Assembly: GCF_056712565.1 (NCBI RefSeq)
Contig: NZ_CM160072.1
DNA length: 64,000 nt
Direction: 5' to 3' (one strand)
Part shown: positions 26,085-64,000 of the stretch, one piece after another
Layout of the letters: each line of letters opens with the position of its first letter
Numbering within the stretch: position 1 is the first letter of the stretch
The notes under the pieces: generated by a model
What the model saw: only the letters and a program-made list of their open reading frames with translations
What the model was told of the DNA's origin: nothing
The model's database searches: none
Translations under genes and position numbers: made by a program

Positions 26085-26347
26085 ATAATCAGTTACACCA
26101 ATGAGTCCTAAACGAAATACATGTGTGAAGTTGATCACAAATTTAAACACTGGTAGGGTAAAAAGGTCATTAACTGCTCAATTCAGGCGTCAACTGGTTT
26201 GATTGTACATTCCTTAACCGGAGGGTGTAAGCAAACCCGCTACGCTTGTTACAGAGATTGCATCCTGCAATTCCCGCTCCCCTTTTGCGGCCGTCGCGCT
26301 GATTTTTCTGGCGTTTGCGGAAATGGGCCAACTCTGCGAGGAAAGCT

Positions 26348-37767: not shown

Positions 37768-39123
37768 ATGATGTCTGCACCCAAAATTACATTTATCGGC
37801 GCTGGTTCGACGATTTTCGTTAAAAATATTCTTGGTGATGTGTTCCATCGAGAGGCGCTGAAAACGGCGCATATTGCCCTGATGGATATCGATCCCACCC
37901 GCCTGGAAGAGTCGCACATTGTGGTGCGTAAGCTGATGGATTCAGCAGGGGCCAGCGGCAAAATCACCTGCCACACCCAACAGAAAGAAGCCTTACAGGA
38001 TGCTGATTTTGTGGTGGTGGCATTTCAGATTGGCGGTTATGAACCTTGCACGGTGACTGATTTCGAGGTCTGTAAGCGGCATGGTCTGGAACAAACCATT
38101 GCCGATACGCTGGGGCCGGGCGGCATTATGCGTGCGCTACGTACCATTCCGCACCTGTGGCAGATTTGCGAGGACATGACGGAAGTCTGCCCCGATGCCA
38201 CCATGCTCAACTACGTTAATCCAATGGCGATGAATACCTGGGCGATGTATGCCCGCTATCCGCATATCAAGCAGGTAGGGCTGTGCCATTCGGTGCAGGG
38301 AACGGCGGAAGAGCTGGCGCGTGACCTCAATATCGACCCGGCTACGCTGCGTTACCGTTGCGCAGGTATCAACCATATGGCGTTTTACCTGGAACTGGAG
38401 CGCAAAACCGCCGACGGCAGTTACGTGAATCTCTACCCGGAACTGCTGGCGGCTTATGAAGCAGGGCAGGCACCGAAGCCAAATATTCATGGTAATACTC
38501 GCTGCCAGAATATTGTGCGTTACGAAATGTTCAAAAAGCTGGGCTACTTCGTCACAGAATCGTCAGAACATTTTGCTGAGTACACACCGTGGTTTATTAA
38601 GCCAGGTCGTGAGGATTTGATTGAGCGTTATAAAGTACCGCTGGATGAGTACCCGAAACGCTGCGTCGAGCAGCTGGCGAACTGGCATAAAGAGCTGGAG
38701 GAGTATAAAAACGCCTCCCGGATTGATATTAAACCGTCACGGGAATATGCCAGCACAATCATGAACGCTATCTGGACTGGCGAGCCGAGTGTGATTTATG
38801 GCAATGTCCGTAACGATGGCTTGATTGATAACCTGCCACAAGGATGTTGCGTGGAAGTGGCCTGTCTGGTTGATGCTAATGGCATTCAGCCGACCAAAGC
38901 CGGTACGCTACCTTCGCATCTGGCCGCCCTGATGCAAACCAACATCAACGTACAGACGCTGCTGACAGAAGCTATTCTTACGGAAAATCGCGACCGTGTT
39001 TACCACGCCGCGATGATGGACCCGCATACTGCCGCCGTGCTGGGCATTGACGAAATATATGCTCTTGTTGACGACCTGATTGCCGCCCACGGCGACTGGC
39101 TGCCAGGCTGGTTGCACCGTTAA
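37768..39123 (+). CDS. melA: Alpha-galactosidase MelA (GH4, NAD/Mn-dependent)
   Basis: 451-aa ORF MMSAPKITFIGAGSTIFVKNILGDV..., Rossmann GAGS motif. Confidence 0.93.
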   Translation: MMSAPKITFIGAGSTIFVKNILGDVFHREALKTAHIALMDIDPTRLEESHIVVRKLMDSAGASGKITCHTQQKEALQDADFVVVAFQIGGYEPCTVTDFEVCKRHGLEQTIADTLGPGGIMRALRTIPHLWQICEDMTEVCPDATMLNYVNPMAMNTWAMYARYPHIKQVGLCHSVQGTAEELARDLNIDPATLRYRCAGINHMAFYLELERKTADGSYVNLYPELLAAYEAGQAPKPNIHGNTRCQNIVRYEMFKKLGYFVTESSEHFAEYTPWFIKPGREDLIERYKVPLDEYPKRCVEQLANWHKELEEYKNASRIDIKPSREYASTIMNAIWTGEPSVIYGNVRNDGLIDNLPQGCCVEVACLVDANGIQPTKAGTLPSHLAALMQTNINVQTLLTEAILTENRDRVYHAAMMDPHTAAVLGIDEIYALVDDLIAAHGDWLPGWLHR

Positions 39124-39892: not shown

Positions 39893-41539
39893 TTACTTAG
39901 TGCAGTTCGCGCACTGTTTGTTGACGATCTGCTGGAAGAAGTCGTTACCTTTGTCATCGACCAGGATAAACGCCGGGAAATCTTCTACTTCGATTTTCCA
40001 GATAGCTTCCATACCCAGCTCCGGATAAGCGACGCATTCCAGATGCTTGATGCTCTGCTGCGCCAGTACCGCCGCCGGACCGCCGATGCTACCGAGGTAG
40101 AAGCCGCCGTGTTTATGGCACGCGTCGGTAACCTGCTGGCTGCGGTTACCTTTCGCCAGCATGATCATGCTGCCGCCGTGGGATTGCAGCAGATCCACGT
40201 AGGAGTCCATACGACCTGCGGTGGTTGGGCCAAGTGAACCTGATGGATAACCGGCAGGCGTTTTCGCCGGACCCGCGTAGTAGATCGGGTGATCTTTGAT
40301 GTACTGCGGCAGTTCTTTACCGGCGTCAATCAGCTCTTTCAGCTTGGCGTGTGCAATATCGCGACCCACGATAATGGTGCCGGTGAGCGACAAGCGGGTG
40401 GATACCGGGTATTGCGAAAGCTGGGCAAGGATCTCTTTCATCGGGCGGTTAAGGTCGACTTTCACTGCTTCGCCTTCACCTGCCTGACGCAGTTCTTCTG
40501 GAATGTACTGGCCTGGATTGTGTTCCAGTTTTTCGATCCAGATACCTTCGCGGTTGATTTTCGCTTTAATGTTACGGTCAGCGGAGCAGGAGACTCCCAT
40601 GCCTACCGGGCAGGATGCGCCGTGACGTGGCAGACGGATAACGCGGATGTCGTGCGCGAAGTATTTACCGCCAAACTGCGCGCCAAGACCGAGTTTCTGG
40701 GCCTCTTCCAGCAGTTCCTGTTCCAGCTGGATATCGCGGAACGCCTGACCATGTTCGTTCCCTTCCGTCGGCAGTTCATCGTAATAGTGAGCGCTTGCTA
40801 ACTTGACGGTTTTCAGGTTGGTTTCCGCAGACGTACCGCCAATCACAAACGCGATATGGTACGGCGGGCAGGCTGCAGTACCGAGGGTACGCATTTTCTC
40901 GACGAGGAAGTTTTTCAGTTTGCCGGGCGTCAGCAGGGCTTTGGTTTCCTGGTAGAGATACGTTTTGTTGGCAGAGCCGCCGCCTTTAGCGACACAGAGG
41001 AATTTGTACTCATCGCCATCTACCGCGTACAGGTCGATTTGCGCAGGCAGGTTCGTGCCGGTGTTGACCTCTTTATACATGTCCAGCGGCGCGTTCTGTG
41101 AATAGCGCAGGTTATCTTCGATATAGGTGTTATAGACGCCTTTCGACAGCGCTTCTTCATCACCGCCACCGGTCCACACGCGCTGACCTTTTTTACCGAC
41201 GATGATCGCGGTGCCGGTATCCTGGCAGGTCGGCAGCACGCCTTTAGCGGCGATTTCGGAGTTTCTTAAGAATTGCAGCGCCACGTACTTGTCGTTTTCG
41301 CTGGCTTCTGGATCGTGAAGAATAGCCGCAACCTGTTTCTGGTGTGCCGGGCGGAGCATGAAAGAAGCGTCGTGAAAGGCTTGCTGCGCCAGCAGGGTCA
41401 GGGCTTCTGGTTCCACTTTCAGGATGGTTTCGCCGTCGAAGTCGGCAACGCTAACGTAATCAGAAGTGAGTAGATAGTATTCGGTATTGTCTTTCCCCAT
41501 CGGGAAAGGTGCCTGGTAGATAAAGGGTTTGTTTGACAT
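39893..41539 (-). CDS. fumB: Class I fumarate hydratase FumB (Fe-S, anaerobic)
   Basis: 548-aa [27 protein letters not shown]... Confidence 0.93.
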
Positions 41540-41616
41540 AGCTTCCAGCCTGTAACTCTGTATTTGTTATTCGAAAATGGCGTGCCGCGTAGTCACGGGC
41601 GGCACGCAAAGTGCAT

Positions 41617-42957
41617 TTATAAGAACCCGTACATCGCGGCGAAGATCCAGCCGAAGACGCACGATACGCTCACACCAATCAACCCCGGCAGAATAAAGCT
41701 GTGGTTGATGACGAAGCGACCGATGTGGGTGGTGCCGGAACGGTCAAACTGAATCGCTGCCAGATCGCTCGGATAAGTCGGCAGGATGTAATAACCGTAG
41801 CAAGCCGGTGCTGAAGCCACGATGTATGCCGGATCAACGCCGATCGCCAGCGCGACCGGAACAATCGCCGCCAGCGCCGCAGCCTGAGAGTTTACAAACT
41901 TGGAAACCAGCAGCAGAACAATGGCATAGGCCCACGGATACTCTTTCACCATTTCACCCAGTACGCCCTGAATTTCAGACATATGCGCACCGAACATGGT
42001 TTCAGCCATCCATGCGATACCGTACACCGCCACGATGGCGATCATACCGGAACGGAAGACTTCGTTTTTTGAGATAGACGCGGGATTGGTTTTGGTCAGG
42101 ATAATAATCAGCGCCCCGGTCAGCAGCATAAACATCTGAATAACCAGTACCATCGACAGCGGTTTGCCGCCGAAGGATGGACGCAGGTCCGAATCAGCAC
42201 CAAGAAGGGCGACTACAGCGATTGCCCCGAGGAAGATCCACATTGCCAGCCAGTTGCTTTTCGGCAGTTTTTTATCCAGCAGCGTCGCGGTATCACCGTA
42301 AACATACTCACGGTTTTCCGGTACGGAGATGAATTTTTGGAACTCTTCGTCTTTATCCAGATCTTTACCGCGGAACCAGCTGAAGATACCGATCGCCAGG
42401 ATACCGATTAACGTCGATGGAATGGTGATTGCCAGCAGGTCGAGGAACTCAAGATGGCGACCATCAAAGGTGACATTACCCAGCATCGCAACCAAAGATA
42501 CGACCGCAACCGACACCGGACTGGCGATAATCCCCATCTGTGCACCGATAGAACTTGCCGCCATCGGACGTTCCGGACGGATGTTGTTCTTAATAGCAAC
42601 GTCGTAGATGATCGGCAGAATGGTGTAAACCACATGACCCGTACCGCAAAGAATGGTCAGCGTACAGGTCACAAACGGCGCGACAATTGAGACATATTTC
42701 GGGTTGCGACGCAGCAGCTTCTCGGCAATTTGCAGCATGACATCAAGACCGCCCGAAGCTTGCAAGGTCGCCGATGCCGCCACCACCGCAATGATAACCA
42801 GCATGACATCAACCGGTGGTTTACCTGGCTGAAGGTGGAAGACGAAGACCAGAATGACCAGACCGATACCGCCTAATAAACCCAGCGCGATACCCCCCTT
42901 TCTGGCACCATAAAACAGACATATCAGTATTATGATAAGTTGGATAGTAAATAACAT
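41617..42957 (-). CDS. dcuB: Anaerobic C4-dicarboxylate transporter DcuB
   Basis: 446-aa polytopic membrane ORF. Confidence 0.93.
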
Positions 42958-43527
42958 GTGTGAACCCTCGCGATAATCCTATTTAAATTTTTGCTGAATA
43001 GATCACAGTCACGTTCTGTTTTGTATGAACTGTTTTCAGAGCCTGACTAAATATCCGTTTGGTCGTTACCGGCTTGAGCAAATACCTCACAGTGAATATT
43101 GGCTGATTAAAGCAGCGGCAAATTTATGCACTGTGATAAGCGGCTTTTTCAGAGAGAAAGACTCTCTGGCGATGGGTTTATAGTTTGTACAGCGCAGATG
43201 TTAATGTTTTGTTTGCTGTTATCTTATTGATATTTATCGGTCTGTTTTTTGTTCTCAGGGCAGGTATCATTAGGTTTATAGATTAATCTGATCTACCCAT
43301 TTGTGGGTAAAAATACACATAATGTGGGTGACATAATAGTTAATTAACTTTTGTTAGCGTTTTGAAATTAAAAACACCGTTCATCTGAAGAGATATTAAT
43401 TTTTAGCGATGATGGAGGGATAATTATATTTGATCTGGCACAAGTTTTACTGATGAACGATGTAACTTGTGCCAGGGGGATTTTGCATTACGGTAATAAT
43501 TATTACTTACAGATAACCAGCGATCCG
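42958..43527 (-). promoter_or_regulatory. Long AT-rich dcuB upstream regulatory region
   Basis: 570-bp AT-rich non-coding stretch between dcuR stop and dcuB start; individual sites not mapped here. Confidence 0.5.
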
Positions 43528-44247
43528 TTATTGGCAATATTGTTTCAGTAGTGAGTAGTGTTCTGCCTGAATACGGTAACGGTAAACCGGACGCCCCGTG
43601 ACGCCATAATGGATACTGGTGAACAATATGTGGCAGTTGACCAGCCAGATAAGGTATTTACGGCAGGAAACACGCGAGATGTTAACCTCGTTAGCCAGCT
43701 CGTCGGTTGAAAACTCATAGTCCTGATGCGCGTCAATCCACTGGCACAGCGTGCGTAACGTCTGCGGCGTTAAGCCTTTTGGCAAGCGACGAGGATCCTG
43801 CTCGTTGGAGCTGCTGCCGTGGATTAGCTGATCAAGCTCGGCCTGGTCATAATACTGATGTTTTTCCAGCGCCATTTTCTTTTGCCGCCAGCCGGTGAGC
43901 GCCTCTTCAAAGCGGGAAGCCTGGAAGGGTTTGATCAGGTAATCCACAACACCGTAATGCAGCGAATCTTTAATGGTTACTGCATCGGCAGCGGAGGAGA
44001 TGACAATCACATCACTTTTGCAACGCGCGTTATGCAGGACAGGCAGTAAATCGAGCCCGTTCTCTTTTTGCATATAGATATCTAGCAATATCAGGTCGAT
44101 AGGCGTATCGCTATTGAAGATAATCTCTTTGGCTTTCTCCAGCGTCGAAGCCGTTCCACAGCATTGAAAGCCCGGGATTTGTGCCACGTATCGGCGATTC
44201 AGCTCCGCGACCATTGCGTCGTCATCGATAATTAATACATTGATCAT
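43528..44247 (-). CDS. dcuR: Response regulator DcuR (CitB family)
   Basis: 239-aa ORF MINVLIIDDDAMVAELNRRY... Confidence 0.93.
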   Translation of the reverse strand: MINVLIIDDDAMVAELNRRYVAQIPGFQCCGTASTLEKAKEIIFNSDTPIDLILLDIYMQKENGLDLLPVLHNARCKSDVIVISSAADAVTIKDSLHYGVVDYLIKPFQASRFEEALTGWRQKKMALEKHQYYDQAELDQLIHGSSSNEQDPRRLPKGLTPQTLRTLCQWIDAHQDYEFSTDELANEVNISRVSCRKYLIWLVNCHILFTSIHYGVTGRPVYRYRIQAEHYSLLKQYCQ

Positions 44248-45875
44248 CTGTTCGACCTCTCCCCGTCCCAGGGTATCTGGACAAAAAATTGTGTGAAAAT
44301 CCCGGGTTCCGATTCCACGGCGATGCTGCCGCCGAGATTTTCTACCTGTTGTTTGACAAGTGCTAAACCGACGCCTCGCTCGCTTCCTTTTGTCGAGACA
44401 CCTTTGTCAAAAATGTGATCGATTTTGTCGGGTGCGATCCCCGGTCCATCATCGTTAACTTCGCAGTGCAGCCAGCCGTGACGGTAGTGCAATGTTACGC
44501 TAATTTCGCCACCGGGTTCCGGTCCTAATGCCTCCAGCGCGTTTTCTATCAGATTTCCCAACGTGGTAATCAGCGTCGCGACCTGATCCTCACTACCGCT
44601 GTCTGGCAGCTGGCTTTCACTGTTTAAAATCAGCGTATGGCCTAAATCGGTCGCGCGGTTAATCTTGCTGATTAAAAAACCAGCGATAACCGGAGATTTG
44701 ATCTTACCCAGCAGAGAGCCAATCTCTTCCTGATAGTTATTGGCTGTTTTGAGAATGTAATCTTCCAACTGCTTATAACTCTTCAGATGCAATAATCCGA
44801 GAATCACATGCAATTTATTCATAAATTCGTGGGATCGTTCACGAAGTGCGTCAGCATAGTTGACCAGACCGTCGAGTCGCTGCATCAGTTTACGTACTTC
44901 AGTTTTGTCCCTGAAGGTTGAAATGGCACCGATGATAACGCCATTACTGCGCACCGGAACGGTGTTGATCAGTAATAGTCGGTCCTTAATCGTAATCTCT
45001 TCGTCGCGGCGTGGGGTTCCGTCGCGTAACACTTCCGAGACATCTACCACCTGTGACCACGAGTGGCTTAGCGTCGACAGTTTCTCATCGTCCTGCGACT
45101 TACGGTAATTCAGCAATTCTTGTGCGGCATCGTTGATCAGCGTGACCTCGCCGCGATCGTCCACGGCAACGACGCCTTCTTTGATGGACTGCAACATGGC
45201 CTGGCGTTGCTCAAACAGTGTGGAGATTTCGTAGGGTTCCAGGCCGAAAAGGATTTTTTTCAGTACGTTAACCAGAATGCATGTGCCGATCAGTCCGACC
45301 AGCATGCCAAATAGTACCGACCAGATAATGCTCCAGCGACTGTCATTGATCTGTTGGGTCACGCGGCTTAACTCAAGGCCGATCGCCACCACGCCAATTT
45401 GTTTATGATTTTCATCGTAGATGGGGGTAAATACGCGTAAAGCCTGCGCCAGAAAACCGCGATTGATAGCGACATTTTCTTCGCCATTCAGCGCTTTAAG
45501 GATGTCATCACCTTTAAATGGCTGACCAATACGCTGGGCTTCAGGATGCGAGTAGCGAAGGCTTTGCATATCGGTAACGACAATAAACAGCAGATCGTTG
45601 CGTTTGCGCACGGCTTCCGCGATGGCCTGGATTCCACTCTCCTGCGGTTTTTTCTGCAAGCCCTGACGGATTTCCGGCGAGTCGGCGAGGGTACGCGCTA
45701 CTGCCAGTGCCTTGTTAGCTAGCCCGTCTCGCGTCATATCACTGATTTGCGAGAAGTAAATCAGATGCACCACCAATAGCACCGAGAACAGTACCGCGCT
45801 GACCATTAAGATCACAGTGGTACTCAATTTCATCGGACGTTTGCGTAACATACGGTAGGGCAATGAATGTCTCAT
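44244..45875 (-). CDS. dcuS: Sensor histidine kinase DcuS
   Basis: 543-aa ORF; two TM segments, periplasmic PAS, kinase domain; overlaps dcuR start. Confidence 0.93.
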   Translation of the reverse strand: MRHSLPYRMLRKRPMKLSTTVILMVSAVLFSVLLVVHLIYFSQISDMTRDGLANKALAVARTLADSPEIRQGLQKKPQESGIQAIAEAVRKRNDLLFIVVTDMQSLRYSHPEAQRIGQPFKGDDILKALNGEENVAINRGFLAQALRVFTPIYDENHKQIGVVAIGLELSRVTQQINDSRWSIIWSVLFGMLVGLIGTCILVNVLKKILFGLEPYEISTLFEQRQAMLQSIKEGVVAVDDRGEVTLINDAAQELLNYRKSQDDEKLSTLSHSWSQVVDVSEVLRDGTPRRDEEITIKDRLLLINTVPVRSNGVIIGAISTFRDKTEVRKLMQRLDGLVNYADALRERSHEFMNKLHVILGLLHLKSYKQLEDYILKTANNYQEEIGSLLGKIKSPVIAGFLISKINRATDLGHTLILNSESQLPDSGSEDQVATLITTLGNLIENALEALGPEPGGEISVTLHYRHGWLHCEVNDDGPGIAPDKIDHIFDKGVSTKGSERGVGLALVKQQVENLGGSIAVESEPGIFTQFFVQIPWDGERSNR

Positions 45876-46055
45876 CAGCTTCCTTGTGTGACAAATTTCT
45901 TAAGCATTATCTCTGATGAGGCGGGTAATTCAAAGGGAGTAAGAATGATTGGCTATATAGGGGAAGAGACTCTGGCAACGGAAACTGCCAGTGCTGTATG
46001 AAGATTCCGGGGCTATGCTTATAGCGATAATCATACTGATGAGAGAGGGAAGGTC

Positions 46056-46286
46056 ATGGATCGGGCGCTACTGGACGGGGGTTATCGCTGTTATACCGGC
46101 GAAAATATCGATGTCTATTTTAACACTGCGATATGTCAGCATTCTGGCAATTGCGTACGTGGCAACGGCAAGTTATTTAATCTCAAACGAAAGCCGTGGA
46201 TCATGCCGGATGAAGTCGACGTTGCCACTGTGGTTAAAGTGATTGATACGTGCCCGAGTGGCGCGCTGAAATACCGTCATAAATAA
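46056..46286 (+). CDS. yjdI: Small Cys-rich protein YjdI
   Basis: 76-aa ORF with CxHxxxC...C pattern. Confidence 0.8.
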
Positions 46287-56149: not shown

Positions 56150-56720
56150 AATAGAAACTCATTCGAAAAGGGAATGATGCAATGATAATTGCCATAACCT
56201 ATTTTTTCCATCTATAGATGGGTTTATTTACATATTATTGGTGAATGTAGGACGTTATTTTTACCCGCCATAAACTTCTTGATTACATAGTATTACGAAA
56301 GGATTTTACTGAGAACCAGAAGTAATTTTCCTTACCATCAAAATTCATCATCTTTGCCAAAGAAAAATGTTCAGAAAATAATCCATGAAAAATTGTCCGG
56401 AGCGCTTACTATTTTAATGGATTGTTAGTCTTTGCATGAGCAAACGGACTGATACATTTCTCTTTGTTCTCATTCAGAAAATCTCATCAGTTGGCGTTCT
56501 GCCCGATGTTGTGCTTTATGGGTGCGTTACGCTCCTGATGACGTCATTTGACGTTCAACAGCATCACGGGGCCGCACGACATTTCACGTCAGTCAGCGCT
56601 ATAGCTCAGAAACAAATTTTCCCGAATTGGGATATGCCCGCAAATTGCTGGTGATGTGGGGAGAATCTGGTTGAGTTCGGTAGAATTGATTTGGCGGCAG
56701 GACGCTTAAATCGTGGCGTC

Positions 56721-56756
56721 CTGAAACGAAAAACGGACCTCCGTGGAGGTCCGTTT
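56721..56756 (-). terminator. Rho-independent terminator native to the tRNA-Phe locus
   Basis: Minus-strand AAACGGACCTCC-AC-GGAGGTCCGTTT followed by TTTTTCGTTT; lies just 3' of the tRNA-Phe 3'-end copy. Confidence 0.65.
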
Positions 56757-56765
56757 ATATGAATT

Positions 56766-56787
56766 TGGTGCCGGACTCGGAATCGAA
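56766..56787 (-). repeat. Degenerate copy of the 3' end of tRNA-Phe: att-site direct repeat marking the island boundary
   Basis: tggtgccggactcggaatcgaa is the reverse complement of the last 23 nt of E. coli tRNA-Phe (TTCGATTCCGAGTCCGGGCACCA) with one C missing; no upstream tRNA body follows. Confidence 0.75.
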
Positions 56788-56980
56788 TATTTTATTTATC
56801 ATATTGATATTGATGTGATTTATTTGGTTTGGTGAAAAATGTACCCTCTTTTGTACCCTCAGTCCCTTTTGCTGTGAAAAAGGAATCAAACCCGGGAGTT
56901 GGAAGATGAGGTGAAAAGGGGGACGCATAAAGGGATTCACCTTAACAGCGTACTACTGTTAAGGTGGGAGGACCATCTCA

Positions 56981-57544
56981 TTATCCCCACCGGTCCCATC
57001 TCACCAGGTTGTTGATGATAATTTTATTACTAAATTTGCAGGGCGGCCTGGTTTTGTAATCCCGGCTCAGTCCTCTGAAGGCATTGATCTCCCCCCGCTC
57101 AAACAGCTCATCCTTATTCTGGTGCAGTTGTTTAAATGTGCTCAGAATGTTCGCTTCGCTGATTTCCGGAAAATTATCATATTCCAGTGACCTGAACCCT
57201 GTATCACGTGCCTGTGCATCCATTAAGGAAAACATCCCGGAACGCTGCATCAGGTTACGCCAGATTTCGCGCTCAAGATTCCGGGTAATGGCTTTCATTG
57301 CTGTTTCTGGTTTCTCCATCATCCAGCAACCACAGCGAAAATTCTGTTTCATCGCCCAGTCCGGGGCGGCTTTACCGCCAATATTTTCCGTCAGTGCTGA
57401 GATTTCTGTCAGTTGCCGGATAAGCGTGTCGATTTGCAGTAGTGTACTCTTTCGTACAGCCAGGATGTGTCTGATACTTGTGGAACAGATAACGGCTGTA
57501 TGCCCGTTGACCGCGTTCGGGTGGGGGATTGTGATATCTGACAT
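56981..57544 (-). CDS. Hypothetical island-terminal protein (possibly DUF4942-like)
   Basis: 187-aa ORF, last gene before the island boundary; family assignment uncertain. Confidence 0.45.
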   Translation of the reverse strand: MSDITIPHPNAVNGHTAVICSTSIRHILAVRKSTLLQIDTLIRQLTEISALTENIGGKAAPDWAMKQNFRCGCWMMEKPETAMKAITRNLEREIWRNLMQRSGMFSLMDAQARDTGFRSLEYDNFPEISEANILSTFKQLHQNKDELFERGEINAFRGLSRDYKTRPPCKFSNKIIINNLVRWDRWG

Positions 57545-57628
57545 TATGAGGTTTCCTTTCTGTTTATAAACGAAAACGCCAGCCCTGTTCAGGCTGGCGT
57601 CAGGAGAATGGAGTCTGGTGAGTGAGAT

Positions 57629-58051
57629 TCACCGGTTCTGGTGCATAAGTTGCAGTTGGTGCAGGGTACGGATATCCTCCCTGGCCTGTTCAATACAGGG
57701 CAGCAGTGCTGCCGAATCCGTTTTATCCTCATCGTTGTCGAAAATAATTCCGGACCCGCAGTCGATATTGTCCTGCAGCCACGCAATGAGGATATCCAGC
57801 GCTGTTTCAGTGGTTAATGGCATCACGCTCTGTATCACTGTATTGTCTTCCGGCAACTGATGAGGGCTGGCATAAGTTGCCGGTGTTTCGGTAGAGTCAC
57901 GGTCATCCACCACGCGGAGTGAATCACCGTTTTCAGCGGCCTTATTAATCAGTTCAGCGAGATTAACACCATCAATGTCAACGACAATTCGCCCCATATT
58001 CAGTGCCTGTACGTTAACGCTGTCGGCTTCCGGCGTCAGGGAAAGTTTCAT
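57629..58051 (-). CDS. YeeW-like protein
   Basis: 140-aa ORF immediately downstream of, and overlapping by 4 nt, the CbtA-like toxin gene. Confidence 0.6.
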   Translation of the reverse strand: MKLSLTPEADSVNVQALNMGRIVVDIDGVNLAELINKAAENGDSLRVVDDRDSTETPATYASPHQLPEDNTVIQSVMPLTTETALDILIAWLQDNIDCGSGIIFDNDEDKTDSAALLPCIEQAREDIRTLHQLQLMHQNR

Positions 58052-58425
58052 TGTTTCACCTCCGGGTGCTTACCCAGGATAATATTATTTACCGTTCTGT
58101 AATTGTCGCGGGTCATCAGGCCGGTCGCCCTGCGAGCCCGGAGGATATCAATACTGTTTATTAACTGAGAACGGGTACAGGCGCTGAATCCCGGCTGGTC
58201 GGTACGTACCAGTGCGTATTTTTCAACGAGAAAGTTCACCGCATCGCACAGTGAAATGCCTGCCTCAATATGCTGCTCAATCACACGTTCATCAGCGAAC
58301 GGTGTGTCATTCAGCGTAAGGCCGTAGTGCTGATCCAGCAGTCGGGTGAGCAGTGTCTGCCAGATTTCAACCGGAGACGGGCGTGAACTGGCCGCCTGCC
58401 CGGGTAATACAGGTAATGTTTTCAT
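58048..58425 (-). CDS. CbtA-family toxin (YeeV/YkfI/YpjF-like, type IV TA)
   Basis: 125-aa ORF MKTLPVLPGQAASSRPSPVEIWQTLLTRLLDQHYGLTLNDTPFADERVI... Confidence 0.8.
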   Translation of the reverse strand: MKTLPVLPGQAASSRPSPVEIWQTLLTRLLDQHYGLTLNDTPFADERVIEQHIEAGISLCDAVNFLVEKYALVRTDQPGFSACTRSQLINSIDILRARRATGLMTRDNYRTVNNIILGKHPEVKQ

Positions 58426-58513
58426 ACTGAAGATTTTCCTGATATGCAGAGATGAAAAATGGAAAAGTGGCGTGGTGAAAGCACCAGGCCGAGCAGAAGG
58501 TTATTCTGGAGAG

Positions 58514-58882
58514 TTACTTTTTCGTTTCGGGCGTCGGATAAACAGCCATATAAACGTAGCCACAACTGCCGAGGGTGTCGGCTTCGCAGGTCAGCCCTTT
58601 TGCATACAGCGTGACGGTATGCTGATGGCGGGGATTCAGTTCACCGCTGGTGAGCATGAGTTCCAGTTGTTTCATCAGCAGCGGAAAGGCCTGGTCCAGG
58701 TGGTACGAATCCGCGTCGCTGAACCGCCCTCTGATACCGGCGCGGTCGGCAAGGTAATGCAACCGGTTGCCTTCCTGTACCAGACGGGCACCAAAACAGG
58801 GCGTCACGGTGCAGGGCAGTCCCCACCAGGTACGGTCGTTATTGTCGTCGGGAAGCGTTGTCCCGGGGAGTGTGTCTGACAC
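58514..58882 (-). CDS. CbeA-family antitoxin (YeeU/YafW/YfjZ-like)
   Basis: 122-aa ORF MSDTLPGTTLPDDNNDRTWWGLPCTVTPCFGARLVQEGNRLHYLADRAGI..., immediately upstream of the toxin. Confidence 0.8.
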   Translation of the reverse strand: MSDTLPGTTLPDDNNDRTWWGLPCTVTPCFGARLVQEGNRLHYLADRAGIRGRFSDADSYHLDQAFPLLMKQLELMLTSGELNPRHQHTVTLYAKGLTCEADTLGSCGYVYMAVYPTPETKK

Positions 58883-58961
58883 GATAAAATCCTCACAGAA
58901 AATTGGTTAAGAATGGTCCGGTGGTGGCGATAATTCTGCTCTTCTGAATGCCCTTCCAGAC

Positions 58962-59183
58962 TCAGTTCAGGGTGACGCTCATCAGCCGGACATACGGACC
59001 AAAACTGTCCTTCCGGCGTTCTGCAAACACGGCCAGCACACAGGGAATATCCTGTACTTCACGGCCGGTATATGTATCCGTGCTACCGTGCCAGCGGTAT
59101 TTACCGGTACAGAACGGAAAAAGACGGGATGCAGGATGCTGACGGTGAATACGCATGGCTTCACCACGGGTGATGATTTTCAT
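58962..59183 (-). CDS. DUF987 protein (YeeT-like)
   Basis: 73-aa ORF in the conserved position between the RadC-like and CbeA genes. Confidence 0.65.
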   Translation of the reverse strand: MKIITRGEAMRIHRQHPASRLFPFCTGKYRWHGSTDTYTGREVQDIPCVLAVFAERRKDSFGPYVRLMSVTLN

Positions 59184-59269
59184 GAGAATAGTCCTCCTGA
59201 ATGTGAAAGTAAGAAACAGCTGAGAAAGAGAAACTGAAGTGATATGAAGGTGATTGTGACGGTGACGGG

Positions 59270-59746
59270 TTAAAGCAGACCGTGTTCCGCAAAGGAGAAA
59301 ACCTGGCTGCCACCGACTATCAGATGGTCCGGCACCCGGATATCCACCAGGCCCAGTGCCTGTACCAGACGTTCCGTGATAAGGCGGTCTGCCTTGCTGG
59401 GTGTGACTTCACCGGACGGGTGATTGTGTGCCAGCACCACAGCAGCGGCATTGTGATACAGGGCGCGTTTAATCACTTCCCGGGGATGGACTTCCGTGCG
59501 GTTGATGGTGCCGGTGAAGAGGGTTTCACCGGCAATCAGCTGATTCTGGTTGTTCAGATACAGCACCCGGAACTCTTCCCGCTCCAGTCCCGCCATGTTC
59601 AGAATCAGCCATTCTCGTGCCGCACGGGTGGAGGTGAAGGCCACGCCGGGTTCATGAAGATGGCGGTCCAGGGTTTTCAGGGCCCGTTGAATGAGGCTGC
59701 GCTCACCGGGCGTCATTTCTCCGGGCAGAAAGGAAATCTGTTGCAT
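59270..59746 (-). CDS. RadC-like JAB-domain protein (YeeS/YkfG/YfjY-like)
   Basis: 158-aa ORF with JAMM/MPN motif HNHPSGEVTPSKAD. Confidence 0.8.
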   Translation of the reverse strand: MQQISFLPGEMTPGERSLIQRALKTLDRHLHEPGVAFTSTRAAREWLILNMAGLEREEFRVLYLNNQNQLIAGETLFTGTINRTEVHPREVIKRALYHNAAAVVLAHNHPSGEVTPSKADRLITERLVQALGLVDIRVPDHLIVGGSQVFSFAEHGLL

Positions 59747-59760
59747 TGTTCCGGCCCCTT

Positions 59761-60240
59761 TCAGTCAATGATGCGCATAATGGCGCTGCATTCCGGATGC
59801 TGCAGGGCGTAATCCCGCAGCCGGTAATAATGGACCGTCATGGCATAACATTCCGTACGACAGGCATGATGGCTGTACGTCATCAGACAGGCGGCAATAC
59901 CGGCAGCTTCCGGACTCATTTCAGCGCGGTTACCGTTCATGGCATTGAACAGTACCCATGTTTCGTCATCATCGTCATCCGGTTCAGGTGCCATAAATGC
60001 GCCACCGTTGTTCAGGGTGTACAGATTCCAGATGCCCCCGCAGTAGTCTTCGCACAGACGGTCCATCCAGCCGAAGACACGGGGCTCCAGGGTCACCCAC
60101 TGTGGAATGAGGCCAAAATGCTGCGGCCAGAAGCTGATACGTTGTTCATCAGGGACGGGAGTAGCAACCAGTTGGGGCTGGTTATTCCCTGGTGCTGTGG
60201 CTGAAGAAAGAGCAGTTGTGTTCTGAGAAACGATTTTCAT
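59761..60240 (-). CDS. Antirestriction protein (ArdB/KlcA-like)
   Basis: ORF 59761..60312; start at MKIVSQNTT (cat 60238-60240); ISFWPQHFGLIPQWVTLEP...GGIWNLYTLNNGGAFMAPE. Confidence 0.75.
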   Translation of the reverse strand: MKIVSQNTTALSSATAPGNNQPQLVATPVPDEQRISFWPQHFGLIPQWVTLEPRVFGWMDRLCEDYCGGIWNLYTLNNGGAFMAPEPDDDDDETWVLFNAMNGNRAEMSPEAAGIAACLMTYSHHACRTECYAMTVHYYRLRDYALQHPECSAIMRIID

Positions 60241-60505
60241 GAGTGAAATCCTTACAATGTGTATAAATGAGAGGAAATAAAGGCCGGGGGCTGACAACAT
60301 CACGTTCATCACTGACCGTGAGACCCGGCAATATCAGGGATGAATGATATTCGGCTGAAATTCCGGACAGCCGTACGCGTAACCGTTCCGGTCACAGACG
60401 GATGGCCAGAAGATGCCATTGCCTGTACTCAGTCTGCACAGACTGAGTTCTCCGGGGCGTCGGGTGATTCTGGTGCCTGAATCACGCCTTCAGGGACAGA
60501 TTGCA

Positions 60506-61324
60506 TCAGCGCAGGCTCTCCAGTAGCGTTTCTGCCATCACCCACAATGCGCGATTGAGCTTAATGCCGGTGTCGATGCTGTGAATGGCACGGGTGTGGA
60601 TACGTTTTCCTCTGGCACTGCGACCGGAAATTCCGCCTTTTAGCATATTCTCCTGGATGGTCTGATAAGTACTCCACAGGTCCTTACCGTAATCCTCCCG
60701 GCGTCGTGGCGTCAGAATGTCGGCGGTGGTGACGGGCTGATGTTCGTCACCATAACGGTAAGTCAGTGCCGCCTGTGCCAGCGCCTGGCGTGTCGGTGGC
60801 GGCAGGACCAGCGACTGCATGGCATCACGCTTCTCCTCTATCCGGTCAAACACGCCCACCACCTCGTAAGCCCCTTCAATAACTTTCTCCACCACATTTC
60901 CCCGGTGTGGAACACGCAATTCTCCCAGAGACTGACCGCAGACCAGTCCATTGGTACAAATGGCACGAAAATATCCGGGTAACATCTGGTAGCTGGATGA
61001 ACCGTCATGGGAGTTGAGCAGAATAATTTCAGGCACATGCTGACCGGTTATCTGTCCGGCCCGCCGCAGACGCAGCATATGTTTGGTATATTCCCGGCGG
61101 CTCTGGTCGCGCACACGGGTCTGGCAGGCGAAGAACGGCTGAAAGCCTTCCCGCTGCAGATTTTCCAGGACGGTGATGGTGGGAATGTACGCATACCGTT
61201 CACTGCGGGAGGTGTGCCGGTCTTCTCCAAAAATACTCGGGACGTGGTACATCAGTTCTTCGCGTGTCAGTGGGCGCTCCCGACGGATCTGATTTACATG
61301 ACCAAAACGACTGGCTAATTGCAT
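60506..61324 (-). CDS. DUF932-family protein (YfjQ/YafZ-like)
   Basis: 272-aa ORF; length and position typical of CP4-type islands. Confidence 0.65.
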   Translation of the reverse strand: MQLASRFGHVNQIRRERPLTREELMYHVPSIFGEDRHTSRSERYAYIPTITVLENLQREGFQPFFACQTRVRDQSRREYTKHMLRLRRAGQITGQHVPEIILLNSHDGSSSYQMLPGYFRAICTNGLVCGQSLGELRVPHRGNVVEKVIEGAYEVVGVFDRIEEKRDAMQSLVLPPPTRQALAQAALTYRYGDEHQPVTTADILTPRRREDYGKDLWSTYQTIQENMLKGGISGRSARGKRIHTRAIHSIDTGIKLNRALWVMAETLLESLR

Positions 61325-61413
61325 ACTTTGCTCCTTATGAATGAATTAGCGGTATAAACGAAAAGGCCGCGTCTCCCGGAGAAGACGCGGCCTGATGGAT
61401 GAAATGAAGACGT

Positions 61414-61647
61414 TTATTGCCTGAGAATTCCCTCACTGGCGAGATACGAATTTAGCTGTTTTCCGGCATCAGGTTCAAAATTCCAGCACCGCCAGCGTAG
61501 CTGCCCTTCGGCATTGCGGATAACCAGCCGGAAATGCGTTCCCTGGTCATCTTCAATAAGCACATTGCGGTAAGCTGTTGTGATGACAACCGCCTGTTCG
61601 CGTGAGAAAGGGCCTTCGGGCAATAAAACAGGGCGACAGTCCAACAT
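61414..61647 (-). CDS. DUF905-like small protein
   Basis: 77-aa [62 protein letters not shown]... Confidence 0.55.
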
Positions 61648-61652
61648 ACCGG

Positions 61653-62330
61653 CTATTTTCCGATAAATTCAACGCTGGCGCCGGTGGCATTACCGTCAGC
61701 ACCAACCGTGACGGTCACTTTGTCGTACGCACGGTCTTCAGGATTGAATACTTCAAACTCAACCTTATTGCCTTTTACTTCGTAAGAGCCAAAATCAGCG
61801 GTTTCTGTTGTTTCCTCGTCGTATTTCCGGGCGTATGCCTGTCGGGCAGCCTGCAGTACGGAGTCTTTATTAATAGTGGTCGTCTGTTTCGGGGAAAAAA
61901 CGGCAAGTGATGTGACAAATTTCGGACAGACCTTCAGCATATCACCGCGGGTGAATTCCATTCGTACACCAAATGCCTGTAAAACGGACACATCACGCTC
62001 TGCTATGGAGTGAACGGCTTTTTTGACCATTTCCGACGCCTGTTCGGCTTCCACCTCAACAGCCCTGAATCCCGTCTGCTGATTACACATTTGTGATGTG
62101 GGGATCAGGTTACCGTTAATACTGATACGGCTGCCCAGGAGCGTCTGTACGCCATTCGGGCATCCCTGCATCAGGCCGGTAATACCAATCGTGCCATTTT
62201 TCAGCATTACCAGCGCCTGACCATCTTCCGTCATGGTCTGGCACCAGCCGTTTTTGACAGCCCAGTTACCGGCGGAGGCGGAGAAGGATGCAACAGTGAA
62301 AAGCAGGGGAAAAAGAGTTCTGGTATTCAT
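61653..62330 (-). CDS. Putative secreted/periplasmic protein of unknown function
   Basis: ORF 61653..62438; start at [20 protein letters not shown] (cat 62328-62330), a signal peptide. Confidence 0.55.
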
Positions 62331-62480
62331 GACTGACCTCTGAAATGAACGTACGGTGTTATTGATAATGATGGAAGGTATGCAGTGACTGTTCAGGAAA
62401 TGACGTAATAGCCATATATTTAGTTTTCTGTTCAACATATTGTCTCCATACCTGTCGGGACGGCTTTGGCAGGCCGGCGA

Positions 62481-63161
62481 TCACAGGTTAAAGGTGTTGA
62501 TAAGTTTATGGATGAAAGAGAAATGTGGCAGGGCGGAGATAAAACGCTCTTCAGCGACCAGATTGTGGATGTGGCCTCTCCGTTCAAACCGTTCTGATGT
62601 CAGGCTGACTGATTTGATATCTGCCAGGGGAAAGACCTGCAGTTTTCCCTTCTGTAACGCGATCAGATACCAGCTTCCGCTGTAATAAATGAGCCGGCAG
62701 GGCTCCAGTGACGTATACCATCGCTCAGTCATCAGCGAGATGTGGATACACTGTTTTATTGCCAGGATGAGTTGCGAGAAACACTCGGGGAACGTTGCAG
62801 TGATATCCGGCGCCGGTAGCCAGATAAGGCAGGGAGAGGGCTCCTGGTTGTCGGTAAGACAGGTTATCAGTCGTCCGTTCCGGAGCGGAAGTATCCGTGC
62901 GATCCCGGTATTCTGTATAAAAGAAAGCATTTCAGGGATCGCACACGGGCTGCTCTGTCGTCTGAGGCTGTACCTGCCATTTCTGTACTCTAAATCCAGG
63001 TGAACCAGACGCTGATGAAAATCGCGCTGTAAAGTACGTTCTGTAACGCCAAATTCATCTGACAGTGTCTTTAGTGACAGAGATTCTCCGGCCATCAGTC
63101 GGCTGATAATGAGTGATAAGCGAACCGCCAGACGATCATGCCGGGAACGATCATCAGACAT
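62481..63161 (-). CDS. HTH + WYL-domain transcriptional regulator (YfjR-like)
   Basis: 226-aa ORF; N-terminal HTH and WYL signature IYYSGSWYLIA. Confidence 0.7.
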   Translation of the reverse strand: MSDDRSRHDRLAVRLSLIISRLMAGESLSLKTLSDEFGVTERTLQRDFHQRLVHLDLEYRNGRYSLRRQSSPCAIPEMLSFIQNTGIARILPLRNGRLITCLTDNQEPSPCLIWLPAPDITATFPECFSQLILAIKQCIHISLMTERWYTSLEPCRLIYYSGSWYLIALQKGKLQVFPLADIKSVSLTSERFERRGHIHNLVAEERFISALPHFSFIHKLINTFNL

Positions 63162-63363
63162 AGATGTGTACTCCGTAAGAAAACATCTTTTATTTCATGA
63201 TGTTATTATGCCTCATGGTGTTGAAAGGATGTGTCGTATCTGAATAATCAGGAATAAAATGCAGCAGAAAAAATATTCCTTTAATTATCTGATTTTTAAT
63301 GATGATTTCATAAAAAGAAGAATACTCGTTAATCCAGCGACACATCCTGTCGGCGTGAGTGTG

Positions 63364-64000
63364 TCAGAACAGACGATCCCACAGTGTTTCCAGCAGGCGG
63401 ATAATGCGGTCCCGGGCTTTACGCAGAAGCTGTAACATCCAGACCGGAAAAGTGAACCGGGCAACGGCGTCGTCAAAACTTTTCCCGATGGCGTCACCAA
63501 AAGTCTGTTGTGCGTGTTTCTGGGCCTGTTCAGAGCGGTTTTCCCCCCGGATATGTGAATAAACCGCACTGGTTGCCTGCGGTGGCAGGGCGTGGATCAT
63601 CAGCGACACAAACGCCGGAAGATTCCAGCCGACAGGCGCAGCAACGGGGAGTACCGGAAATGATGACGGGAACAGGGTTGCCACCCTGGCTGTAACAGTT
63701 GCCAGTGAGAGTTCCTGGTGACGGGATGGGCATTTTTCTGTGGCATTCCATTCTTCAGCAGGAAACACGCGATCGGCATGGCTGAGAACAAACAGAAAAC
63801 GCGAGGGATCTGCACCTTCATTCAGTAAAAACTGATGCATGGCAATATCGGCAGCATACGCACGTTCATCAGCCCGCAGGATCCAGATAATCAGATCCAG
63901 TTCCGGCAGTAACTGACGGTAAATCTCCCGGTATTCCTGATCATGCTGCGGTGTCTCACCAATGCCGGGCAGATCGACCAGCGTCATTCTGCGTTCACCA
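63364..64000 (-). CDS. YeeP/YkfA/YfjP-like GTPase, C-terminal part; 5' end lies beyond the window
   Basis: Minus-strand frame open to the window edge; contains DLPG (G3-like) motif, but the N-terminal P-loop would lie upstream. Confidence 0.6.
   Translation of the reverse strand, partial: GERRMTLVDLPGIGETPQHDQEYREIYRQLLPELDLIIWILRADERAYAADIAMHQFLLNEGADPSRFLFVLSHADRVFPAEEWNATEKCPSRHQELSLATVTARVATLFPSSFPVLPVAAPVGWNLPAFVSLMIHALPPQATSAVYSHIRGENRSEQAQKHAQQTFGDAIGKSFDDAVARFTFPVWMLQLLRKARDRIIRLLETLWDRLF

Follow-up and report, generated by a model that had tools for sequence, protein, structure and literature searches.

The window analysed here, a stretch of 64,000 nucleotides of E. coli DNA, carries dcuS, dcuR, dcuB and fumB on its minus strand, and between dcuR and the dcuB gene downstream of it on the same strand lies a gap of exactly 570 bp (42958-43527; Table 1). 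The gap sequence is 100% identical to that of strain ATCC 11775, is found in 5411 of the 5426 complete E. coli genomes and also measures 570 bp in MG1655, and neither the ATCC 11775 nor the MG1655 record contains an annotated feature inside it. With a GC content of 0.365, compared with 0.510 in the window as a whole, 0.522 in dcuB and 0.494 in dcuR, and as the longest among the 66 annotated intergenic gaps of the window (median 79, runners-up 415 and 402 bp), it is indeed the unusually long piece of AT-rich non-coding DNA that the original prediction had described. It is also the already-studied control region of dcuB (dcuB-fumB), the gene of a fumarate transporter: the dcuB-fumB promoter region is recorded in EcoCyc/RegulonDB, and Golby et al. 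in 1998 and Abo-Amer et al. in 2004 are said to have described the promoter region of dcuB (dcuB-fumB) in E. coli K-12. The K-12 region is the same locus, with 98.6% identity across the gap and 30-nt flanks at both ends, and differs by strain SNPs only, e.g., CTCA here as against the K-12 IS5 target CTAA (43078-43075). DcuB itself is the main anaerobic C4-dicarboxylate carrier and is needed for fumarate respiration and gut colonisation in commensal and pathogenic E. coli and Salmonella (PMC10636207), and the region upstream of dcuB is among the most repeatable targets of adaptive mutation in mouse-gut E. coli (PMC3945185, PMC5094792).

Table 1 Features of the dcuR-dcuB gap and the neighbouring genes in window coordinates, with positions relative to the putative distal start where given
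Feature	Coordinates	Strand	Sequence	Position or remark
fumB	39893-41539	minus		
dcuB	41617-42957	minus		ORF listing; RefSeq annotation (ATCC 11775, MG1655)
dcuB start codon	42955-42957	minus	ATG	ORF listing; RefSeq annotation
SD region (predicted anti-SD partner)	42963-42971	minus	GCGA-GGG-UU	inside invariant TCGCGAGGGT
Weak CRP-like site	43006-42991	minus	TGTGATCTATTCAGCA	3 mismatches
Third predicted leader helix	43007-43048	minus		RNAalifold pairs 144-152 with 173-181; MFE structure
Leader hairpin	43150-43168	minus	CAGAGAG-UCUUU-CUCUCUG	stacked directly on the anti-SD
Predicted anti-SD	43169-43178	minus	AA-CCC-A-UCGC	leader +127 to +136
A/C-rich, G-poor leader part	43179-43258	minus		C/G ~2, G 9-13% (composition scan)
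NarL 7-2-7 site	43294-43309	minus	TACCCACAAATGGGTA	spans -5 to +11; pattern TACYYMTNNAKRRGTA, 1 mismatch
Putative distal start	43304	minus		FNR centre 43436.5 minus 132.5; -10 hexamer 6 nt upstream
-10 hexamer	43310-43315	minus	TATTTT	inside invariant ATGTGTATTTTTA (43320-43308)
Block C, AT-rich box, 44 nt	43333-43376	minus		-72 to -29; almost invariant
FNR site	43430-43443	minus	TTGTGCCAGATCAA	motif match, 2 mismatches; centre 43436.5 = -132.5
Perfect 12-bp inverted repeat	43435-43475	minus	CTGGCACAAGTT-N17-AACTTGTGCCAG	arms 43475-43464 and 43446-43435
Block A	43483-43510	minus		directly follows the dcuR stop; conserved across genera (21-sequence alignment)
dcuR	43528-44247	minus		ORF listing; RefSeq annotation (ATCC 11775, MG1655)
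dcuS	44244-45875	minus		

A scan for DcuB with one genome per species returned 80 loci, and among these dcuR lies directly upstream of dcuB in five genera only, namely Escherichia, Salmonella, Citrobacter, Trabulsiella and Intestinirhabdus. The gap measures ~570 bp in Escherichia, 717-729 bp in Salmonella, 552-754 bp in Citrobacter (552 bp in one C. amalonaticus gap, with most Citrobacter exceeding the Escherichia length), ~630 bp in Trabulsiella and ~950 bp in Intestinirhabdus; gaps this long are not confined to E. coli. Klebsiella and Serratia have other genes upstream of dcuB, with gaps of ~400 and ~290 bp, respectively. The MAFFT alignment of 21 gaps from the five genera revealed near-invariant islands amid freely diverging, indel-rich sequence, located at 43510-43483, 43443-43430, 43376-43333, 43320-43308, 43176-43150 and in the last ~100 nt before the ATG. 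The island at 43176-43150 is made up of CCCATCGCC and a hairpin, and the final ~100 nt contain the invariant TCGCGAGGGT. The conserved blocks and the FNR site at -132.5 found here fit the known control of K-12 dcuB by FNR, NarL, CRP and DcuR, with a DcuR-responsive far-upstream promoter.

The original prediction had further proposed that a gap of this size leaves room for an unannotated small protein or an independent sRNA, although it saw no convincing ORF with an RBS. The latter observation holds in a both-strand ORF search combined with a conservation test. Regarding the proposed hidden gene, 570 bp are available and several ORFs of 10-52 codons occur on both strands, but none of the ORFs of at least 10 codons on either strand is intact in Salmonella or the C. 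freundii group, and no ORF lying within the gap is preceded by a Shine-Dalgarno sequence. A single antisense ORF, of 14 codons, has been kept whole in C. amalonaticus, the longest ORF (52 aa, plus strand) is interrupted already in K-12, and the sole ORF scored with GAGG is a 37-codon TTG ORF that starts inside dcuR. The Rfam 15 covariance models gave no match at E<=1 over 41400-46200 (4.8 kb) on both strands, and the gap contains neither a consensus promoter nor a terminator-like site on either strand, the only terminator-like site lying inside dcuR. We therefore regard a small protein or independent sRNA hidden in the gap as extremely improbable, so that from the earlier description the regulatory region with a long leader, reaching 347 nt from the putative start to the ATG, stands, and the small ORFs and the sRNA do not.

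The distal start of dcuB was placed near 43304, which is 4,349,091 in MG1655, because an FNR ChIP-seq site at -132.5, a gut-selected up-mutation of the -10 hexamer and sequence conservation point to this position, and from the back-calculated start we infer a 5' UTR of 347 nt, which is untranslated and carries no conserved ORF; in the other genera the leader measures 311-574 nt. The -10 block ATGTGTATTTTTA is invariant in all 21 aligned sequences. During evolution in the mouse gut, an A->T change was selected 354 nt upstream of the dcuB ATG (PMC5094792), which corresponds to window position 43311 and turns TATTTT into TATTAT. In the same setting IS2 insertions were selected at -359 and -338 (PMC5094792), i.e., at 43316, directly upstream of the -10 hexamer, and at 43295, and anaerobic dcuB mRNA was raised in an IS2 clone (PMC5094792). 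Together, the invariant block, the selected mutation and the flanking IS2 insertions support a functional -10 ~350 nt before the ATG and point to a main start 347 nt upstream of the ATG, in place of the lone start near dcuB that would have spoken against the regulatory reading of the gap.

No recognisable -35 is present upstream of TATTTT, and neither strand of the gap gave a promoter in a strict sigma-70 consensus scan, a blank that is expected of an activator-dependent promoter and that equally lends a promoter no support. Neither dcuB nor dcuR is listed in the E. coli Term-seq supplements, as these come from aerobic cultures, and both genes are likewise absent from a supplement of in-vitro run-off transcription start sites. 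According to the abstracts of Golby 1998 and Abo-Amer 2004, dcuB reportedly has two promoters, with the proximal start mapped in 1998; the sequence alone permits no placement of this proximal promoter.

Motif scans for regulator binding sites, suggested earlier as a check, returned an FNR match, a NarL 7-2-7 match and a weak CRP-like match in the gap. The FNR site TTGTGCCAGATCAA is nearly invariant across the aligned genera. In a genome-wide study, dcuB-fumB is among the operons directly activated by FNR (PMC3688515), with a ChIP-seq peak centre at 4,347,259 (U00096.2) and the top dcuB-fumB site at -132.5 from the known start (PMC3688515). In window coordinates this peak lies at ~43449, inside the gap, and the FNR site in the gap is occupied in vivo. 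The distance of -132.5 is unusual for activation by FNR.

The NarL pattern TACYYMTNNAKRRGTA, allowing 1 mismatch, has 2 matches in 64 kb compared with 0.14 expected, and the first heptamer of the site is partly retained in other genera. As judged from its position, NarL at TACCCACAAATGGGTA would be expected to exert nitrate repression by occluding the promoter, and the 7-2-7 match over the start fits the repression of dcuB by nitrate that Golby 1998 is said to have observed. The arrangement resembles that of the frdA and dmsA promoters, in which NarL heptamers on or near the start likewise accompany an FNR site and serve nitrate repression. The FNR site of those promoters is of class II and lies at about -41.5, whereas dcuB has FNR at -132.5, an AT-rich box over the -35 region and then a 347-nt leader.

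This AT-rich box, Block C, has the sequence TGTTTTTAATTTCAAAACGCTAACAAAAGTTAATTAAsTATTAT and contains WWYWAA hexamers. Block C is probably the DcuR-P binding site, an assignment based on the abstract of Abo-Amer et al. from 2004, where the DcuR motif is reportedly a tandem (T/A)(A/T)(T/C)(A/T)AA and the DcuR site is said to lie 27 bp upstream of a new DcuR-responsive dcuB +1. Block C also resembles an ArcA box (AGTTAATTAA). Neither ArcA nor Fur was assigned to Block A or Block C: dcuB goes unmentioned in the main text of the ArcA ChIP-seq paper, and a Salmonella Fur study reports that Fur does not affect dcuB-fumB. The proximal CRP-like site TGTGATCTATTCAGCA is not among the CRP matches with at most 2 mismatches, and it has no sensible spacing to any plausible start.

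Within the leader, the 19-nt hairpin has the same length in 27 out of 27 sequences. Two-sided changes affect five of its seven pairs, e.g., to GGGAG/CUCCC, GGAAG/CUUCC or GAGGA/UCCUC, and 90.5% of cells are paired; when the hairpin is taken jointly with the long-range helix described below, 91.2% of cells pair, and sliding the partners lowers this to 31-61%. In the hairpin analysis G-U pairs are more frequent than A-C mismatches, an excess that favours the dcuB-sense strand, and RNAalifold predicts the hairpin on its own. The conserved parts of the leader behave like RNA. The third predicted helix shows some two-sided changes and lies in the conserved proximal block, where it overlaps the weak CRP-like site TGTGATCTATTCAGCA (helix 43007-43048, site 43006-42991). 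Upstream of these elements, the A/C-rich, G-poor part might, by its composition, resemble a Rho-utilisation or Hfq (ARN) tract.

Directly 5' of the hairpin, CCCAUCGC (43176-43169) complements GCGAGGG (42971-42965) in the SD region with one bulged A, and in E. coli this anti-SD:SD helix is longer by two A-U pairs. CCCATCGC is invariant in 25 of the 27 sequences, and across the 80 loci CCCATCGC and the TCGCGAGGGT context co-occur solely in this five-genus clade. When entire leaders plus 45 nt of the ORF were folded species by species (22 cases), mean pair probabilities for the helix, which spans ~200 nt, were 0.8 or higher in 14 cases and 0.48 or higher in 18; in 3 of the 22 species the probability was at most 0.08, and it was ~0 in two Citrobacter isolates with a mutated anti-SD. 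RNAalifold, applied to 18 sequences, recovered the anti-SD:SD helix, the hairpin and the third helix unprompted. For the leader of this window, whose fold has z = -2.9, the helix is present in both the MFE and the centroid structure, and with only 12 nt of the ORF included its own MFE structure is without the helix.

Native contexts beat 92-100% of shuffled contexts for formation of the anti-SD:SD helix in five species picked from those with high native probability, and the helix, being fairly strong by itself, forms in 7-60% of the shuffled contexts. Among the seven core pairs five never vary, one shows a single G-U, and two are each broken in 1-2 sequences, and of the flanking pairs one flips from UA to AU, apparently in one event, and a second one fails to pair in 15 of 27 sequences. 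Covariation gives no support for the helix because the helix is invariant, the 27 loci with the leader being too small a set, and too uniform at the anti-SD, for a long-range covariation analysis.

Taken together, we consider it likely that the dcuB-fumB control region combines an activator-dependent distal promoter with a 347-nt leader predicted to sequester the SD. According to this model, 43305-43527 would hold the promoter and its upstream sites and 42958-43304 the untranslated leader. A sigma-70 promoter with the -10 TATTTT and no recognisable -35 would initiate at ~43304, activated through the invariant AT-rich box at -72 to -29, as putative DcuR-P site, and through FNR at -132.5, and the NarL site over -5 to +11 should shut this distal promoter in nitrate. 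In the long transcript, the invariant CCC-A-UCGC at +129 would pair with the GCGA-GGG ribosome-binding region ~200 nt downstream and hold back translation until the pairing is opened. Sequestration of the SD by the leader anti-SD, as suggested by the fold predictions, is a reasonable prediction and not a finding, and we place it somewhat short of probable. A wider proposal can be put forward a little more tentatively still, namely that the leader is an undescribed cis-regulatory RNA of five genera, in which the anti-SD CCCAUCGC, stacked on the covarying hairpin, closes a ~200-nt domain onto the RBS, so that DcuB would be gated post-transcriptionally by an sRNA (with FnrS as a candidate), by Rho or by processing, and the gut IS insertions at -121 to -123 would act partly by cutting the inhibitory element off the gene. 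Our literature search found no earlier report of a conserved RNA fold in the dcuB leader.

Between the anti-SD and the SD fall the IS insertions that arose repeatedly as adaptive changes at -121 and -123 from the dcuB ATG (PMC5094792, PMC3945185), and these are consistent with an inhibitory upstream leader and equally with DNA-level derepression of a proximal promoter. The second possibility belongs to an explanation that does without RNA control, in which the leader is AT-rich DNA serving transcription control only, through nucleoid proteins such as H-NS, IHF or Fis, extra CRP, ArcA or FNR sites and possibly a proximal promoter, and in which the conserved blocks are protein sites. Its GC content of 0.34-0.38 is typical of nucleoid-protein targets, the leader includes the CRP-like sequence at 43006-42991 as well as another FNR-like match (43227-43240), and a strong CRP-like site lies inside the leaders of Salmonella and the C. 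freundii group. In addition, the IS insertions 121-123 bp from the ATG confer a fitness gain, and activation of this kind by IS5 often reflects relief of DNA-level repression and needs a downstream promoter. A proximal start was reportedly mapped in 1998. The hairpin, however, is difficult to reconcile with a protein site, since the arms at 43168-43150 covary in five of seven pairs and contain sense-strand G-U pairs, as an RNA stem would, and 99 of 100 shuffled versions fold less well than the leader; we thus judge control at the DNA level only to be rather unlikely. To a similar degree we doubt that the main role of the leader is to permit premature termination by Rho, with read-through setting expression, perhaps alongside SD sequestration as in rpoS. 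The leader of 347 nt is untranslated and lacks an intrinsic terminator, and just 5' of the anti-SD it contains a ~80-nt, G-poor stretch with C in excess of G (C/G 2-2.9, G 9-15%), which the composition scan counted in four genera and which recurs in Escherichia, Salmonella and two Citrobacter lineages even though the sequences differ. This case is one of composition, however, and A-rich sequence gives the same skew.

Opening of the predicted anti-SD:SD helix by an sRNA was considered for FnrS, which is induced by FNR: its 5' loop GCGAUGGG would pair with the leader CCCAUCGC, free the SD and activate dcuB translation anaerobically, an anti-antisense action like that of DsrA on rpoS. The invariant leader element is a perfect 8-nt complement of FnrS nt 20-27, the loop AAGCGAUG is given in upper case (highly conserved) in the Rfam RF01796 consensus, A-rich tracts lie upstream in the leader, and both RNAs are made anaerobically. 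The duplex was calculated at -16.0 kcal/mol, compared with -13.4 kcal/mol for anti-SD:SD, and the A left bulged in the SD helix is paired in it; these figures come from a windowed run, as unrestricted RNAduplex gave meaningless whole-molecule duplexes. However, 75% of random 392-nt pieces of the window equal or beat the duplex with FnrS nt 13-34, and we demoted the idea because the match is no better than these. Moreover, the 8-mer occurs 5 times in 64 kb compared with 3 expected, two of the eight FnrS bases are paired in the Rfam consensus structure, and our literature search found no paper linking FnrS with dcuB. To our knowledge, the known FnrS targets are repressed and not activated. The FnrS-dcuB link is a weak speculation, and activation of dcuB by FnrS appears very unlikely.

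For the preferred reading, a leader predicted to sequester the SD, a close known counterpart is the leader of rpoS, whose long 5' UTR masks the SD in an inhibitory stem; Hfq-dependent sRNAs open this stem, and the rpoS leader is also subject to Rho. Both have a long untranslated leader, a predicted long-distance anti-SD, upstream A-rich tracts and a rut-like composition. In contrast to rpoS, the dcuB helix is short (7-9 bp with a bulge) and its sequestration is predicted only, and the two sequences are not homologous.

Overall, this is an ordinary and mostly known locus to which one testable leader-RNA hypothesis is added: the new part is the predicted leader RNA fold, and the rest is a known regulatory region and not a hidden gene. 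The map presented here accounts for the mutations selected in the gut, one of which improves the -10, two of which are IS2 insertions flanking it, and the -121 to -123 IS insertions split the leader from the gene. If the SD-sequestering fold is true, it would add a post-transcriptional layer to a circuit treated as purely transcriptional, and would offer a simple, testable reason why a leader of 350-500 nt is kept across these genera.

Two further elements lie at the dcuR end of the gap. Block A follows the pattern GTTAT..GTAAyAATTATTA..TAATG with a 14-bp palindrome GTAATAATTATTAC at 43499-43486, and candidate roles for it are an ArcA-like 11-bp repeat, the site of a second regulator and an element of the dcuR 3' UTR. 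The perfect 12-bp inverted repeat would, as RNA, form a stable hairpin ending the dcuR message (-25 kcal/mol, z = -3.3). A canonical intrinsic terminator at 43475-43435 was rejected, as the hairpin has no U tract and the terminator scan was blank here. The right arm of the repeat carries the FNR site, and the left arm occurs in Escherichia only.

Folded as RNA, the perfect inverted repeat at the 3' end of dcuR gives a stable hairpin (z = -3.3) that lacks a U tract, and the FNR site sits within its right arm, while its left arm is confined to Escherichia species. The conserved block after the dcuR stop includes a 14-bp palindrome, GTAATAATTATTAC, together with a GTTA-N7-GTAA repeat whose 11-bp spacing is ArcA-like, and in several Citrobacter its counterpart is surrounded by a longer stem.

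Features of the dcuR-dcuB region and of the corresponding comparison loci (L)
Feature	Location	Strand	Position or property
Block kept in five genera	43483-43510	minus	directly after dcuR stop
Perfect 12-bp inverted repeat, CTGGCACAAGTT-N17-AACTTGTGCCAG	43435-43475	minus	directly 3' of dcuR
G-poor leader stretch with C>G, ~80 nt	43179-43258 and equivalents in L007, L009, L021		C/G 2-2.9
Additional leader segment	L007-L018, L022, L028		~150-300 nt downstream of conserved -10; alignment columns 400-590

In Salmonella and in the C. freundii group, the leader contains an insert of approximately 130-150 nucleotides that is missing from Escherichia, Trabulsiella and C. amalonaticus. The CRP-like site in this insert is strong (CGTGA-N6-TCACA) and is accompanied by a hairpin (GTAGCA..TGCTAC); the insert may represent an additional internal promoter or an additional regulatory input. 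In the window, a second FNR-like match (TTGATATTTATCGG, two mismatches) lies inside the leader at 43227-43240, approximately +65 to +78, and its conservation is limited to Escherichia.

Despite differing sequences, the C>G, G-poor stretch was invariably found directly 5' of the anti-SD, the leader element predicted to pair with the Shine-Dalgarno region, in the window as well as in L007, L009 and L021, and it is similar to a Rho-utilisation site or to an A-rich Hfq tract. CCCAUCGC, the invariant element of the leader at 43169-43176, is the exact complement of the conserved FnrS loop GCGAUGGG (MG1655 fnrS, L083 646-657), a match that was not significant when compared with background.

During evolution in the mouse gut, adaptive IS insertions recur 121 to 123 nt upstream of the dcuB ATG (-121 to -123), at the K-12 site CTAA. 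While CTAA is the IS5 target in K-12, the strain studied here has CTCA at 43075-43078 (minus strand), and the IS5 hot spot at these positions is therefore absent.

Elsewhere in the window, the sole other NarL 7-2-7-like match (TACCGCTGGATGAGTA, 38636-38651) is located within melA and probably occurs by chance. A perfect CRP consensus, TGTGAAGTTGATCACA, was found at 26124-26139 in the intergenic region between proP, which is CRP-controlled, and rdcB. Past cadC, at approximately 56400-64000, the ATCC 11775 annotation assigns island-type genes, including antirestriction, YeeU/CbtA toxin-antitoxin, an integrase fragment and several pseudogenes.
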